Positions 6,768 to 11,397 of a DNA stretch of 42,068 nucleotides are shown piece after piece. The DNA lies in assembly GCA_964440905.1 (NCBI GenBank), contig CAYTTU010000104.1:1-42068 (forward strand). Direction: 5' to 3'. This DNA comes from an uncultured Acidimicrobiia bacterium. Its GTDB lineage: Bacteria; Actinomycetota; Acidimicrobiia; Spongiisociales; UBA11373. A model generated the notes under the pieces. It was not told the origin of the DNA, did no database searches, and worked only from the letters and a program-made list of their open reading frames with translations. Each line of letters opens with the position of its first letter. Position 1 is the first letter of the stretch. The position numbers and the translations under genes were made by a program.

Positions 6768-6777
6768 GGGAGGAAGG

Positions 6778-9057
6778 CTACCCGACTCCCGACGCCCGAC
6801 TCCCGACGCCGGACTCCCGCCTTCTCCACCATGAGACGGCGGGGCCGACCGAGACCAGGACCAGGAGCGACAGCACCGAGATCGCCAGCCCGGGAATCAG
6901 GCCCGGAGGCACGAACCGCACCCGCACCACGTGATGACCCGCCGGGACCGCAACCCCGAGCACCAGTCCGTTGGTGCGCAGCACCGGCGCCGAGTGTCCG
7001 TCGACGCTGGCCCGCCATCCCTCCGCCCACGTGTGCGACAGCACCAGAAGGGAGTCGGTGGCGGCATCCACCACCACCTCGCCGCCATCGAGCACGTCGG
7101 CTGACACCACCGTCCCGGAGAACCCGTCGGAGGTGAAATCGCCGGCGTCGGGGCTGCGCTCCACGTAGGCCACCCGATCGAGGGGCGTGGCTGGATCGAC
7201 CAGGGCGGCGCGGATCTCGGAGAGTGGTGCCACCACCACCGCCCCCACCAGGTAGGCCTCGGGCAGGCGCGGCTCCCGCACCCACCGGATGAAGTCGAGG
7301 CCGGGGATCTGAAACTCCCGCTGCCAACCGACGGCGGCGGGATCGATCCGCTCCTGCAGGATCATCGTGCTCACCCGGAGCACATCGGCGATCCACCCTG
7401 GACCCCACAGGTCGGGACGGGTCGGATTGCCGTGATACAGAAACCCACCGGCAGTCTCCGCCCACTCCCCCTGGAGCAGCGGGTCGTACCCGTTCACCCC
7501 GTGCAGGTCCTTGACCACCGAGAGGCTGCGGAACCCGTACCAGTCCGACGCCCACCGGTCGATCCCGCCCGGGGCGTCGTGGGGCGCGCCGATCGATACC
7601 GCAGACTCGTCGTAATAGGCCGTCGTGGCCTCGGGGTCGGCGGAGATCCGCCACGGCGCCACCGCGGCGAACAGCACCATGTCGATGGCGCACACCGCCA
7701 CCAGTGCCGCCACCCCGATCCGGCGCCACCGCACCGCCAGGACAACAGCAAGCACGACCCCGAAGAGCAGGATCGCGGGACGAGCCAACGCCATGCCCCC
7801 AGCGCTGCCGGCGGCGATTTCACCGCTCACCGGGGCGAAGTGGGGCAGCGCCTCGGCAACGGCGATCACCCCGACCACCCCCACCGCCAGGCCGGGCAGG
7901 AAGCGCCGCGGGGCACGCAGCAGTTCACGGGTCCCGAGGGCGGCGAGTAGCGCCATCACCAGATTCAGCAGCCACACCGTCCGCCCCCAGTGCCGGAACA
8001 AGCTCGCTCCGGGGAGGGCGGTGTACATCACCCTCCCCAGTGGGGTCGATCCGCCCAGAGCCACGATGGTCGCCACCAACCCCACCGCCAACAGAGCCCA
8101 CACGGTGCGGTCCCGCCGCCTGGCGGCGACTCCTACCACGGCCAGGGCGATCACCACCACCCCGGCGTAGGCCCCGGTCTCCTGTATCAGTCCCGTGGTG
8201 GCCCAGTCGCCGTCGATCGAGCCACCGAACAGGTATGGGAACAGCAGCATCAGGAACTGGTGCGGGAGGATCGAGCCCTCGAAGGCGGCGGCGACGTCGA
8301 GGGTGGGCCGCACGCTGGTACGGCTGAACTCGAACAGCGGCAGCAGCTGGATCATCGCCAGACCGACACCGCAACCCAGCGCCAGCCCCACCCGGCCCAG
8401 GGCGGGCCAGTCGGGTCGTCGCCCCGCAACCCGGGCAACGGCGTACACCGCGACGCCGAGACCGGCCATCCACAGCAGCTGGGGTTGTCCCAGCAGGCCA
8501 GTCAGCGCCAGGGGTACCGCCACCAGCAGTGCCCGCGGCGCGGACCAGCGCTCCACGAGCAGATCGACCCCGAGGAAGGCGAGCGGCAGCCACGCCGCCG
8601 CGGCGAGGAAGGCGGGGTGCATCAGATGGAACACGACGTATCCGCTCAGGGCGTACCCGGCGCCGGCGATGACCGCCCCGGGCCGGGACCGCCAGCGATG
8701 CCACGCCCAGGCGAAAGCGGCCAGCCCGGCCGCCCAGAGGTGAAAGAGGAACCACCAGCGGTAGGCCTCCACCGGTTCCAACCATCCGAAGACGACATTG
8801 AAGGGATAGAACACCGCGAATTGGCCGGTGCCCACCGTCGAGTGCCCGGCAAAGATGTTCGGGTTCCAGAAGGCAGCGCCCGGGCCGCGGATCTCCCGCC
8901 ACACCGATGCGAAGAAAGGGACGGTTTGCTCGTTGACGTCGCCGTACATAGCGGTGCGCGAACCGGTGAGCACTCCGGAAAAGGGCACAGTCACCGCGGC
9001 GAGGGTGGCGGCGATCGAGAGCCACCAACCGCGAACCAGTCCCCAGAGTGCCCGCAT
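6778..9057 (-). CDS. large polytopic membrane protein, YfhO-like (putative glycosyl-transfer/cell-envelope function)
   Basis: About 760 aa with many TM helices in the N-terminal two thirds, a soluble C-terminal domain and a final TM. Start set to ATG 9057 (MRALWGLVRGWW) because codons upstream run into heptamer repeats. The last 14 codons lie in the heptamer array 6781-6822. Confidence 0.6.
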   Translation of the reverse strand: MRALWGLVRGWWLSIAATLAAVTVPFSGVLTGSRTAMYGDVNEQTVPFFASVWREIRGPGAAFWNPNIFAGHSTVGTGQFAVFYPFNVVFGWLEPVEAYRWWFLFHLWAAGLAAFAWAWHRWRSRPGAVIAGAGYALSGYVVFHLMHPAFLAAAAWLPLAFLGVDLLVERWSAPRALLVAVPLALTGLLGQPQLLWMAGLGVAVYAVARVAGRRPDWPALGRVGLALGCGVGLAMIQLLPLFEFSRTSVRPTLDVAAAFEGSILPHQFLMLLFPYLFGGSIDGDWATTGLIQETGAYAGVVVIALAVVGVAARRRDRTVWALLAVGLVATIVALGGSTPLGRVMYTALPGASLFRHWGRTVWLLNLVMALLAALGTRELLRAPRRFLPGLAVGVVGVIAVAEALPHFAPVSGEIAAGSAGGMALARPAILLFGVVLAVVLAVRWRRIGVAALVAVCAIDMVLFAAVAPWRISADPEATTAYYDESAVSIGAPHDAPGGIDRWASDWYGFRSLSVVKDLHGVNGYDPLLQGEWAETAGGFLYHGNPTRPDLWGPGWIADVLRVSTMILQERIDPAAVGWQREFQIPGLDFIRWVREPRLPEAYLVGAVVVAPLSEIRAALVDPATPLDRVAYVERSPDAGDFTSDGFSGTVVSADVLDGGEVVVDAATDSLLVLSHTWAEGWRASVDGHSAPVLRTNGLVLGVAVPAGHHVVRVRFVPPGLIPGLAISVLSLLVLVSVGPAVSWWRRRESGVGSRASGVG
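6781..6822. repeat. heptamer array CCCGACT/CCCGACG x6 (minus strand GGGAGTC/GGGCGTC)
   Basis: Direct reading. It lies inside the 3' end of the YfhO-like ORF and encodes ...ESGVGSRASGVG. Confidence 0.9.
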
Positions 9058-9100
9058 CGGCGGGTGAGTGTATGGGGAGACGGAAGCCGGAGGCTGGATT

Positions 9101-9156
9101 GGAGTTTGGAGTTTGGAGTTTGGAGTTTGAGGGGAGACTCTCAACTCTGAACTTCT
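9101..9156. repeat. heptamer arrays GGAGTTT x4 (9101-9128), then ACTCTCA ACTCTGA ACTTCTC (9136-9156)
   Basis: Direct reading. GGAGTTT is the reverse complement of the ACTCCAA family seen at 168-181. ACTCTGA is identical to the units at 154-167. Confidence 0.9.
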
Positions 9157-9161
9157 CCAGA

Positions 9162-9476
9162 CGCGAGAAACCCCGAGGGAGTCCGGCCGAAGCCTCGCCC
9201 TCTCGGGGTTCCCCGAGCGAAACGCACCTTGCGGGACGCCTCTGCACTACGCCTCGGAACGAATCCGTGTGCGAAGCCTGGCCCGGCGACCGCAGCGACA
9301 GCTTTCGCCCGCTGCGACCCTCTCTTGCGAGAGCTAGGTCGGAAGCCTCCTCCAGGAGTTGCCTCCCTTTGGCTCCCCGGGTCACCCCGAGTGGTAACCG
9401 GGAAGATACGACAGGCTGCTCCCGAGGTCAAACGAAAACGCTGTTGAGATTTCGCGCAAGGAGAACGGTTTTCGCG
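9162..9476. repeat. copy A of a ~315-bp hairpin-rich element (candidate structured RNA or MITE-like element)
   Basis: Aligns end to end with 9717-10035. Conserved hairpins at 9185-9194, 9223-9233, 9320-9333, 9355-9366 and 9376-9402. Complementary termini CGCGAGAAACC / GGTTTTCGCG. No credible ORF. Confidence 0.75.
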
Positions 9477-9498
9477 GGGGCCCGGGAGATGAAGCTGC

Positions 9499-9534
9499 GA
9501 GCCCATGAGCCACGAGCCACGAGCCATGAGCCAG
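9499..9534. repeat. heptamer array GAGCCAY x4-5
   Basis: Direct reading: GAGCCCAT GAGCCAC GAGCCAC GAGCCAT GAGCCAG. Confidence 0.85.
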
Positions 9535-9563
9535 CTCGAGGATCGGACAAGGGCCACGGGGAT

Positions 9564-9584
9564 CGCTCATCGCTCATCGCCACC
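9564..9584. repeat. heptamer array CGCTCAT CGCTCAT CGCCACC
   Basis: Direct reading. The array is enclosed by a short ATCGC/GCGAT inverted repeat (9562-9589). Confidence 0.7.
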
Positions 9585-9620
9585 GCGATTCGGGCACCCG
9601 GTCGTCGGGAGGAGGGCATC

Positions 9621-9697
9621 GGGCGACGGGCGACGGGCGACGGGAGACGGGCGACGGGCGACGGGCGACGGGCGACGGGCGACGGGCGTCGGGCGAC
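9621..9697. repeat. 11-unit heptamer array GGGCGAC (variants GGGAGAC, GGGCGTC) with a G-quadruplex-type motif on the plus strand
   Basis: Direct reading. There are eleven consecutive units with G3 tracts separated by 4-nt loops. Confidence 0.95.
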
Positions 9698-9716
9698 GGC
9701 CCCGAAGGGCCCACCA

Positions 9717-10035
9717 CGCGGAAAAGCCCCGAGTGAGTCTCGGCCGAAGCCTGCACCCTCCCGGGGCTTCCCGTTCGAAACGCTCCTTCCGAAGCGCTCC
9801 TGTCCCCCGCCTCGGAGCGAATCCGTGAGCGAAGGCCGGCCCGGCGACCACAACGATGCTTATCGCTCGCTGCGACCCTCCCTTGCGGGAGCGAGGCCGG
9901 ATGCCGCCTCCAGGAGTTGCCTCCCTTCGGCCCCCCCGGGTCACCCCAGGTGGTAACCGGGAAGATACGGGCGCCTTACCCAAGCGTCAAACCAGAACGC
10001 TGCTGAGATTTCGCGTGCGGAGAGCAGATTTCGCG
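9717..10035. repeat. copy B of the ~315-bp hairpin-rich element
   Basis: Direct repeat of 9162-9476, roughly three quarters identical by eye. Matching hairpins at 9742-9751, 9781-9796, 9878-9891, 9913-9924 and 9935-9961. Confidence 0.75.
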
Positions 10036-10044
10036 GAGGAAGCG

Positions 10045-10108
10045 GTCAGCTGTCAGCTATCAGCTTTCAGCCAGACGCCTCTTCGCCCATCGCTCATCGC
10101 CCATCGCC
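10045..10108. repeat. heptamer arrays GTCAGCT x4 (10045-10072) and CATCGCY x4 (10081-10108)
   Basis: Direct reading: GTCAGCT GTCAGCT ATCAGCT TTCAGCC, then CTTCGCC CATCGCT CATCGCC CATCGCC. Confidence 0.9.
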
Positions 10109-10161
10109 TCTCCGGCGACCGGCATCTGGCCTCCGGACGCCTCCTACTCTCCCCCGCGCAC

Positions 10162-11397
10162 ATGTCCACCAGGCTCCTGACGCGCGGCTTCGTCCTCGCC
10201 TGGCTGCTCAGCTTCTTCTCCGGTCTGGCCTTCTTCCTGTTCGTGCACTTCCCCCGCTACCTGGAGGATCTCGGAGCCGACCCCGCCGAAGTCGGCCGGA
10301 TCGTCGGGGCCACGGCGCTGGCGGCGATCGCCATTCGTCCGCTGGTGGGCCGGGCGATGGACCGCCGGGGTCGCCGCCCGGTGGTGCTATTCGGCAACGC
10401 AGTCCACGTGGTCGCGCTCCTGCTCTATCTCACCGTCGACCACATCGGACCGTGGCTCTACGCGGTGCGAATCCTCCACGGCTTCGGGGAGGCGTTGCTC
10501 TTTGCCGCCACCTTCACCATCGCCGCCGACCTGGTCCCGGCAGAACGCCGCACCGAGGGTCTGGCGCTGTTCGGGGTCTCGGGGCTACTGCCTATCGCCG
10601 TGGGCGGGGTGTTAGGCGACTTCCTTCTGAGTCGGTTCGCGTTCGAGTCGATCTTCCTCGCCGCCCTCGGCCTCGGGGCGCTGGCGCTGCTGCTGGCCTT
10701 GCCGCTCCCCGAGACGGTCACGCCGGCGGCGGCGGAACACCACCTGCCCTTCCTCACCTCGCTGCGCCAACGCGACCTCATCCCGATCTGGTGGATCACC
10801 CTGGTGTTCTCGCTGGCGCTGACCGCCTACTTCACGTTCCTGCGGCTCTACATCGACGAGAGCGGAATCGGCTCGATGGGCGGGTTCTTCGGGGCCTACG
10901 CCACCACCGCGGTGCTGCTTCGCCTGTTCGCCGGGTGGCTCCCCGACCGCATCGGACTGAAACGGGTGCTCTACCCGGCGATGCTGGTGTTTGCCACCGG
11001 TCTGTTGCTTCTGGCGGCGGCCCACTCGGCCACGGCCGTGGTGGTGGCCGGGGTGTTCTGCGGGGCGGGGCACGGCTACGGGTTCCCGATCCTGTTCGCC
11101 CTGTGTTTCAGCCGGGCCCGCCCCGCCGCCCGCGGAACCGCGGCGGTGATCTTCACCGGTCTGTTCGACGTCGGAATCCTTGCCGGCGCCCCGGTTCTGG
11201 GCTGGGTCGCCAACCAGTTCGGGTACCCGACGATGTTCCGTCTGGCGGCGATGTGGGTGGCGGTGGGGTTGGTTTCGTTCGCCTTCTGGGACCGCGACCT
11301 GCGCTTTCCCGGCCGGGCGAACTACAGACGTGTCACTCCCGACCCGTATAGTCCGGTTCATGCCGTTGGAGACCCTGTCCCCGAGCCGGGCGAGTGA
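10162..11397 (+). CDS. MFS transporter
   Basis: 411 aa from ATG 10162 (MSTRLLTRGFVLAWLL...). About 12 TM helices and a G.A.DR.GRR loop after TM2. The longer ORF start lies inside the repeat region. Confidence 0.8.
   Translation: MSTRLLTRGFVLAWLLSFFSGLAFFLFVHFPRYLEDLGADPAEVGRIVGATALAAIAIRPLVGRAMDRRGRRPVVLFGNAVHVVALLLYLTVDHIGPWLYAVRILHGFGEALLFAATFTIAADLVPAERRTEGLALFGVSGLLPIAVGGVLGDFLLSRFAFESIFLAALGLGALALLLALPLPETVTPAAAEHHLPFLTSLRQRDLIPIWWITLVFSLALTAYFTFLRLYIDESGIGSMGGFFGAYATTAVLLRLFAGWLPDRIGLKRVLYPAMLVFATGLLLLAAAHSATAVVVAGVFCGAGHGYGFPILFALCFSRARPAARGTAAVIFTGLFDVGILAGAPVLGWVANQFGYPTMFRLAAMWVAVGLVSFAFWDRDLRFPGRANYRRVTPDPYSPVHAVGDPVPEPGE

Follow-up and report, generated by a model that had tools for sequence, protein, structure and literature searches.

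A tandemly duplicated candidate small-RNA gene of a new family in uncultured Acidimicrobiia

Two tandem repeats, unit A and unit B (winA and winB in the pairwise comparisons), were studied in a 42,068-nt stretch of DNA from an uncultured Acidimicrobiia bacterium (contig CAYTTU010000104.1); the whole of this stretch is called the window. Each repeat is probably, though by no means certainly, a small-RNA gene of a new family: a gene of ~240 nt on the minus strand, equipped with its own promoter, tandemly duplicated, and presumably working in trans by binding a protein. Comparison of the sequences of the copies establishes the conservation of the units, the strand, the fold and a promoter-like architecture.

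Two repeat units at one orthologous locus

Alignment by blastn of copy A (9162-9480) with copy B (9717-10040) gave 80.8% identity over 323 nt (E 4.6e-77), confirming an earlier reading of the window made without database searches (the sequence-only reading), which had described two diverged tandem direct repeats aligning end to end. The alignment contains four 1-nt indels, all of them frame-breaking. The limits of the units were placed at 9160-9476 (A) and 9715-10035 (B), with a start-to-start distance of 555-559 nt. Both units lie in a gap of 1.1 kb (9058-10161), between the divergent YfhO-like and MFS genes where the sequence-only reading had located them. Outside the units identity between copies is ~29-35%, which is the random level. 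No third copy was found in the window by blastn or nhmmer.

Related loci (designated by L-numbers) were fetched from public contigs that had been reached through the protein neighbours. The search for more copies, negative elsewhere in the window, was productive here: nine further copies, full-length or partial, were obtained (nhmmer E 1e-38 to 1e-105), giving a total of 11. Their sources are six metagenome assemblies of related Acidimicrobiia/Actinomycetota. The element always occupies one orthologous locus, between MFS and either bPH_2 or YfhO, as a single copy or as a tandem pair, and nhmmer placed it upstream of the MFS gene in every MFS-derived contig. The MFS homologues are 83-63% identical to that of the window; where named, the sources are metagenome-assembled genomes (MAGs) of an Acidimicrobiia or Actinomycetota bacterium. 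Two copies were found in L008 (MFS identity 83%), L014 (71%) and L015 (69%), and one copy in L009-L012 (72%) and L017-L021 (63%), while L013, L016, L020 and L022 have partial copies at contig ends. In L004, which carries a YfhO homologue of 75% identity, the 3' end of the element is right at the contig start. YfhO homologues of 53-56% identity had a sulfotransferase gene upstream and no element, and a YfhO-based locus search in genomes found no relatives.

The nearest relative of winA is L008a (87.7%), and that of winB is L014b (86.7%), with L014a and L015a (84.2% each) and L008b (83.8%) about equal. Since winA and winB are less alike (80.4%) than winA is to L008a and winB to its relatives, the tandem duplication is judged to predate the split of the window species from its closest sampled relative, both copies having been kept. 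The L015 pair, with 92.8% identity between its members, suggests a recent duplication or gene conversion. Many public contigs (Logan, ENA, MAGs) end in or beside the element (L004:1, L008:1, L013:1, L016:1, L020:1, L022:1). These breaks are consistent with failure of the assemblers at tandem copies or at the 7-nt tandem-repeat arrays described below, and copy numbers in MAGs may be under-counted.

Strand and fold of the RNA

The sequence-only reading had described the hairpins on the plus strand. This assignment had to be reversed: the RNA strand is the minus strand of the window, on which the loops read as the tetraloops GCAA, GAAA, GUGA and UUCG. For the whole copies as first delimited, fold z-scores were -2.5 and -2.1 on the minus strand and -0.9 and +0.7 on the plus strand. 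The two-copy consensus fold had -134 kcal/mol on the minus strand versus -90 on the plus strand, and the corresponding multi-copy alifold energies were -227 and -184 kcal/mol. When paired positions were scored for the mismatches that differ between the strands, the minus-sense consensus had 129 G-U cells versus 13 A-C cells, compared with 53 versus 52 in the plus-sense consensus. Thus in the minus sense G-U is tolerated and A-C is not, indicating that selection acts at the RNA level on one strand.

The consensus derived from alignment A5 (13 rows) is a series of eight consecutive local hairpins, P1-P8, with the loops GUGA, GCAA (three times), GAAA, GCCG, AUUCG (UUCG in L017) and UUCG. RNA A covers 9160-9395 (~236 nt, with the A at 9395 as predicted start) and consists of P1 (9376-9391), P2 (9344-9374), P3 (9316-9340), P4 (9292-9315), P5 (9280-9291), P6 (9244-9278), P7 (9219-9242) and P8 (9160-9218). 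The corresponding positions of RNA B, covering 9715-9954 (~240 nt, predicted start at the A at 9954), are P1 9934-9950, P2 9902-9932, P3 9874-9898, P4 9850-9873, P5 9838-9849, P6 9802-9836, P7 9777-9800 and P8 9715-9776, all on the minus strand. The internal loop of P2 displays an invariant GGAGG. No multistem junction or pseudoknot was detected in the consensus. Fold z-scores of three RNA bodies were -2.36 (A), -3.63 (B) and -4.9 (a third copy). A long hairpin, CUUCCCGGUUACC...GGUGACCCGGGGAG, which appeared in the two-copy fold, gave way to the GNRA-capped P1 when further copies had been aligned.

Covariation was judged against controls with slid partners and against 500 shuffles. In the 81 consensus pairs of A5, 96% of the cells were paired (39-55% in the slid controls), compensatory, i.e. 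double-sided, changes were found in 19 pairs (2-8 in the slid controls), and the covariation score was 0.231 (0.056-0.082). On four of five measures none of the 500 shuffles reached the observed value; on the fifth, 'further standard pair types', 36 did. Restriction to ten non-redundant copies gave 96.2% paired cells and 19 double changes, compared with 4-9 in the slid controls. Compensatory pairs are distributed over P1, P2, P4, P6 and P7 (2-5 each), P3 and P8 (one each); P5 has none. Of the two compensatory changes described earlier, the T-A to C-G swap (9320-9333 / 9878-9891) is real and corresponds to pair 180-187 of hairpin P3, and the CGCA/CGCT hairpin (9223-9233 / 9781-9796) is also real and sits in P7. 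On the minus strand the loops of these two hairpins are the stable tetraloops GCAA and UUCG.

The suggestion that the repeats represent a new structured RNA family is upheld by the conservation, the non-coding character and the covariation, and by the lack of a match in Rfam 15. A search of the window with its 4227 covariance models gave no match at the gathering level. With three divergent copies and a threshold of E<=10, only unrelated microRNA and small-RNA models were returned, none of which attained a third of the gathering score; the sole recurring model, mir-BART17, scored 18-19 bits (gathering score 70) on P8 of the window and of L009. ARAGORN found no tRNA or tmRNA in the window, and no published description of the RNA was found in the literature. 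A scan of IMG/VR with CGCAAGGGAGGGKCGCA gave a single match, on the viral contig IMGVR_UViG_3300015165_000003 (L023:6139-6174), which shares 17 nt with P3. The matching segment belongs to a class II tRNA, of which it comprises the long variable arm and the T arm (CUCCC-UUUCGCAA-GGGAG and then GGUCGCAGGUUCGAUCC), and the resemblance was judged to be due to chance.

Promoter-like upstream region and neighbouring genes

Each unit comprises an upstream part of ~80 nt and an RNA part of ~240 nt. Mean pairwise identity is 29% upstream of the unit, 68% in the boxes and the GCGTTTTCG tract, 77% in the -35 box, 39% in the spacer, 77% in the -10 box, 50% in the next 7 nt (discriminator), 82% in the RNA body and 35% downstream of it. 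A promoter scan of the minus strand found exactly two predicted promoters, with 0.0 expected: promoter A (-35 TTGACC at 9426-9431, 17-nt spacer, -10 TATCTT at 9403-9408) and promoter B (-35 TTGACG at 9985-9990, 17-nt spacer, -10 TATCTT at 9962-9967). The -10 motif TAnnTT is present in 11/11 copies and the -35 motif TTG(A/C)C(C/G/A) in ten of them. The spacer is 17-18 nt long in all copies while its sequence drifts. A purine is conserved 8 nt past the -10 box, and we infer that transcription starts at this position. By its motifs and spacing each copy has a putative sigma-70/sigma-A-type promoter.

A pair of direct CGCGAAAWC boxes, invariant in all copies, is followed by the inverted GCGTTTTCG tract. 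The boxes of copy A are CGCGAAAAC (9468-9476) and CGCGAAATC (9448-9456). Copy B has two CGCGAAATC boxes (10027-10035 and 10007-10015), 20 bp apart, at ~-81 and ~-61; all four are in minus-strand orientation. The box motif has four matches in the window, all in the element, versus 0.73 expected, and in the fetched loci paired boxes were found at elements only. CGCGAA-type boxes beyond the canonical pair were also noticed: L009 has a third box (7933-7946), and the inter-copy spacer of L014 (4480-4530, minus sense) contains several GAACGCGAA repeats. These extra boxes hint that the CGCGAA-type box can itself multiply.

The gap is flanked by YfhO on the minus strand (6778-9057, Pfam E 1e-30) and by MFS on the plus strand (ATG at 10162, Pfam E 4e-48). 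The start codons of YfhO, bPH_2 and MFS are each preceded, at 6-11 nt, by a TAnnnT motif of the gene's own, and none of the three has a Shine-Dalgarno sequence. The -10 box of YfhO (TACACT, 9067-9072, minus strand) is 9 nt before the ATG at 9057, an arrangement shared by L004 and L015; that of MFS (TACTCT, 10145-10150, plus strand) is 11 nt before the ATG, and the same leaderless-type arrangement was seen in L008, L009, L014, L015 and L017. Other first-in-operon genes, including PD-(D/E)XK and UvrD-like genes, share this layout, and a further site is at ~6775-6780 (minus strand), while internal genes and GDH have ribosome-binding sites of the GGAGG type instead. This layout implies that first-in-operon mRNAs would be leaderless. 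Only the window, L004 and L015 have YfhO beside the element; in the other loci bPH_2 comes next. In a comparison of the window with L009, L014 and L017, the YfhO gene behaves as an insertion/deletion polymorphism of the locus: where present it separates the RNA from bPH_2, and it is absent from the other relatives. The last ~13 codons of its open reading frame cross the heptamer array at 6781-6819, which makes up the promoter region of bPH_2.

Both units are embedded in 7-nt tandem-repeat arrays; intergenic gaps elsewhere in the window contain such arrays too. The unconserved spacer between the units (9477-9714) is made up mostly of such arrays: CGAGCCA x5 (9498-9533), ATCGCTC x2.7 (9562-9580) and CGGGCGA x11 (9620-9699). 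On the minus strand it opens, right after RNA B, with a small GGGCCC-UUCG-GGGCC hairpin. Heptamer arrays pack the intergenic DNA of this lineage, the unit varying by locus and species (e.g. CGGGCGA, TTGGAGT, GGCACCC, GGCATCG, CAGCTCA, GGCAATG), and they often reach the -10 box of leaderless genes. In the window they are found at 80-171, 1689-1828, 6781-6819, 9099-9129, 9498-9699 and 10041-10108, and in the relatives at L015:1239-2520, L014:3920-4120 and L009:7346-7600. No account of heptamer arrays in Acidimicrobiia was found in the literature.

These surroundings bear on an alternative that we regard as unlikely, according to which the RNA is a long structured 5' leader acting in cis, as an attenuator or in the way of a riboswitch, on the co-oriented operon of YfhO/bPH_2, acyl-CoA synthetase-like and YbaK-like genes, in the manner of tandem riboswitches. 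The RNA is directed toward the operon at every locus, it is not followed by a canonical terminator, and in L017 it ends only 54 nt from bPH_2. However, the first downstream gene differs by species (YfhO or bPH_2), and the distance to it varies between 54 and 260 nt and is occupied by unconserved heptamer arrays. A separate predicted promoter precedes each tandem copy, and past P8, where identity falls to the downstream level, there is no conserved expression platform. Moreover, the downstream genes have their own -10 boxes and no Shine-Dalgarno sequence, and a read-through transcript would be poorly translated. Since the neighbours appear to be leaderless with promoters of their own and the intervening DNA is not conserved, a stand-alone RNA is favoured.

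The promoter-like region also bears on how much of the unit is likely to be RNA. The sequence-only reading had treated the whole ~315-bp element as the candidate RNA and had noted that its termini are complementary, as in a closing helix or in terminal inverted repeats. RNA character holds for ~240 nt, and the first ~80 nt look like boxes plus a promoter. The complementarity is present in the sequence (7-10 nt, CGCGAAA/TTTCnCGCG), where it coincides with the promoter-upstream box and the base of P8; a closing RNA helix is doubtful because the CGCGAAA end (9468-9476 / 10027-10035) is upstream of the predicted promoter. It is rather improbable that the whole ~320-nt unit is an RNA transcribed from an unrecognised upstream promoter, with UUGAC and UAnnUU as RNA motifs on either side of a variable hairpin and CGCGAAA-UUUCnCGCG as closing helix. 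In favour of this reading are the terminal complementarity, which alifold renders as pairs of 22-24 with 343-345, and a weak excess of hairpin stability in the spacers. On the other hand, the closing pairs are invariant and so provide no covariation support, the 3' CGCG is already paired at the base of P8, no conserved promoter is found upstream of box 1, and the geometry of a -35 box, 17-18 nt, TAnnTT, 7 nt and a purine is kept in 11/11 copies.

Proposed function and comparison with known systems

A further comparison is with the RNA-polymerase-binding RNAs Ms1 and 6S. Ms1 has 230-300 nt, forms a transcription unit by itself under a conserved sigma-A-like promoter, and folds into a long rod with a central bubble (PMC4191392). 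Its homologues have diverged too far to be picked up by Rfam or BLAST and are traced by synteny with a HAD-IB hydrolase / phosphoserine phosphatase gene (PMC9130861). That the present RNA is a remote Acidimicrobiia counterpart of Ms1 or 6S is improbable. It would fit the shared phylum, the size, the single-gene unit and the promoter type; among the flanking genes bPH_2, and only this one, agrees with the phrase 'PH domain-containing protein' listed for Ms1 synteny (supplement of PMC9130861). Against it, the covariation-supported hairpins P1, P2, P4, P6 and P7 exclude a rod with a bubble, no Rfam match was obtained, and the HAD-IB hydrolase is absent from all loci, where the neighbours are bPH_2 or YfhO plus MFS.

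A mobile or selfish repeat, similar to miniature inverted-repeat transposable elements (MITE), bacterial interspersed mosaic elements (BIME) or repetitive extragenic palindromes (REP), or palindromes that bind proteins purely at the DNA level, would account for the complementary ends, the tandem occurrence and perhaps the frequent contig breaks, and a MITE/BIME-like family had been one of the two original suggestions. It was not supported by the comparison and is very improbable. Across species with MFS proteins of 63-83% identity, the 11 copies all share one orthologous site; this site is occupied in all six assemblies covering the locus, and searches of the 42-kb window and of ~190 kb of fetched loci revealed no copy dispersed elsewhere. 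The boundaries of the repeat appear to match those of a promoter plus RNA gene rather than terminal inverted repeats with target duplications, and no target duplications were seen in the flanks. The excess of G-U over A-C reflects RNA-level selection on one strand. The pattern GGAGTTGCCTCC-N10-30-GGTAACCGGG had no match in IMG/VR or in GTDB genomes (596 Gb) and two in JGI metagenomes, both chance terminator-like hairpins without further similarity, the pattern being too strict because it was taken from letters invariant between A and B, inside which the relatives differ. A 'distant' blastn search of plasmids and phages gave no match to the element. A decaying or misassembled coding gene has a negligible chance, for although long open reading frames span the copies, the indels between them break the frame, the substitutions track helices and not codons, and a six-frame translated query matched none of 5.8 billion proteins, in line with the earlier view that these frames are not real genes.

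Several points weigh against a stand-alone, protein-binding RNA. The aligned sequences are relatives of one another and also served to derive the structure, so that the contrast with the covariation controls is inflated, and P3, P5 and P8 are nearly invariant and hence barely probed by covariation. The promoter spacers fold slightly better than shuffles (sum -45.5 versus -33.6 +/- 6.0, with 19/500 as low), and the possibility that the first 80 nt also belong to the RNA keeps some weight. P8 is followed by a short U-rich run and here and there by a small GC hairpin, but no canonical terminator was found after it, and read-through into the downstream operon is possible. Expression, the start site and the 3' end are deduced from sequence, and a protein-binding function is pure conjecture.

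With these points in mind, we infer an independently transcribed, stable and trans-acting RNA, and each repeat would be a complete small-RNA transcription unit. Boxes 20 bp apart, the inverted GCGTTTTCG tract and the TTGACC-17-18 nt-TAnnTT promoter would drive transcription of the minus strand, the CGCGAAAWC boxes probably serving as UP-element-like or activator sites for a strong or regulated promoter. The predicted product of ~240 nt would be almost fully paired, capped by very stable GNRA and UUCG tetraloops, and would end in the long hairpin P8 and the short U-rich run. The unit was presumably duplicated with its promoter, and both copies seem to be under purifying selection. The most likely mode of action is binding of a protein partner, as scaffold or decoy, rather than antisense pairing, because there is almost no conserved single-stranded sequence available for base pairing. 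A bolder proposal, which we put forward only tentatively, is that a new class of stable bacterial RNAs with an ornate fold, specific to a clade of uncultured groundwater and soil Acidimicrobiia, has its founding member here. The RNA would be made from a strong rRNA-like promoter, be kept as two paralogous copies, and serve as the core of a ribonucleoprotein (RNP) or, in a lineage with largely leaderless mRNAs, as a functional replacement of global regulators of the 6S/Ms1 type. The GGAGG in the internal loop of P2 would fit this proposal.

It is uncommon to find a structured RNA that has clear covariation but no known relatives, and such RNAs have repeatedly opened new biochemistry. The gene model proposed here is unusually complete, running from the upstream boxes and the promoter to an RNA of ~240 nt in two long-lived paralogues, and it comes from a lineage essentially without known RNA biology. 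Alignment A5 can be used to build a covariance model, and the predictions on strand, 5' end and size are simple to check. The apparent restriction to a single clade and a single locus limits the general impact until a function is found.

Compared with known systems, the element resembles MITE, BIME and REP sequences in being a hairpin-rich intergenic repeat with complementary ends, but differs from them in its single locus, orthologous across species, its RNA-level covariation and its internal promoter. Like tandem riboswitches, it is an intergenic tandem of structured RNAs adjoining a transporter gene; unlike these, it is on the strand opposite to MFS, has a promoter for each copy and lacks an expression platform, and the genes downstream appear leaderless. 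Like the raiA motif, OLE, ROOL, GOLLD and HEARO, which are often lineage-restricted, it is known by conservation and covariation and has many GNRA-capped helices, whereas neither sequence nor structure matches any of these and its distribution is narrow so far; it is also smaller than OLE, ROOL and GOLLD, and has no detected multistem junction or pseudoknot. The eight local hairpins distinguish it from Ms1 as published, as do the neighbouring genes, and tandem duplication is undescribed for Ms1. With Ms1 (MTS2823 / scr3559) and the 6S RNA of Actinomycetota it has in common a stand-alone small-RNA gene of the abundant type in the 230-300-nt range, a sigma-A-like promoter and a purine start, and with Ms1 a conserved neighbourhood, traced by synteny and not by sequence, in which a PH-domain gene is a possible neighbour. 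By analogy, Ms1 is the nearest functional counterpart that can be suggested in the phylum.

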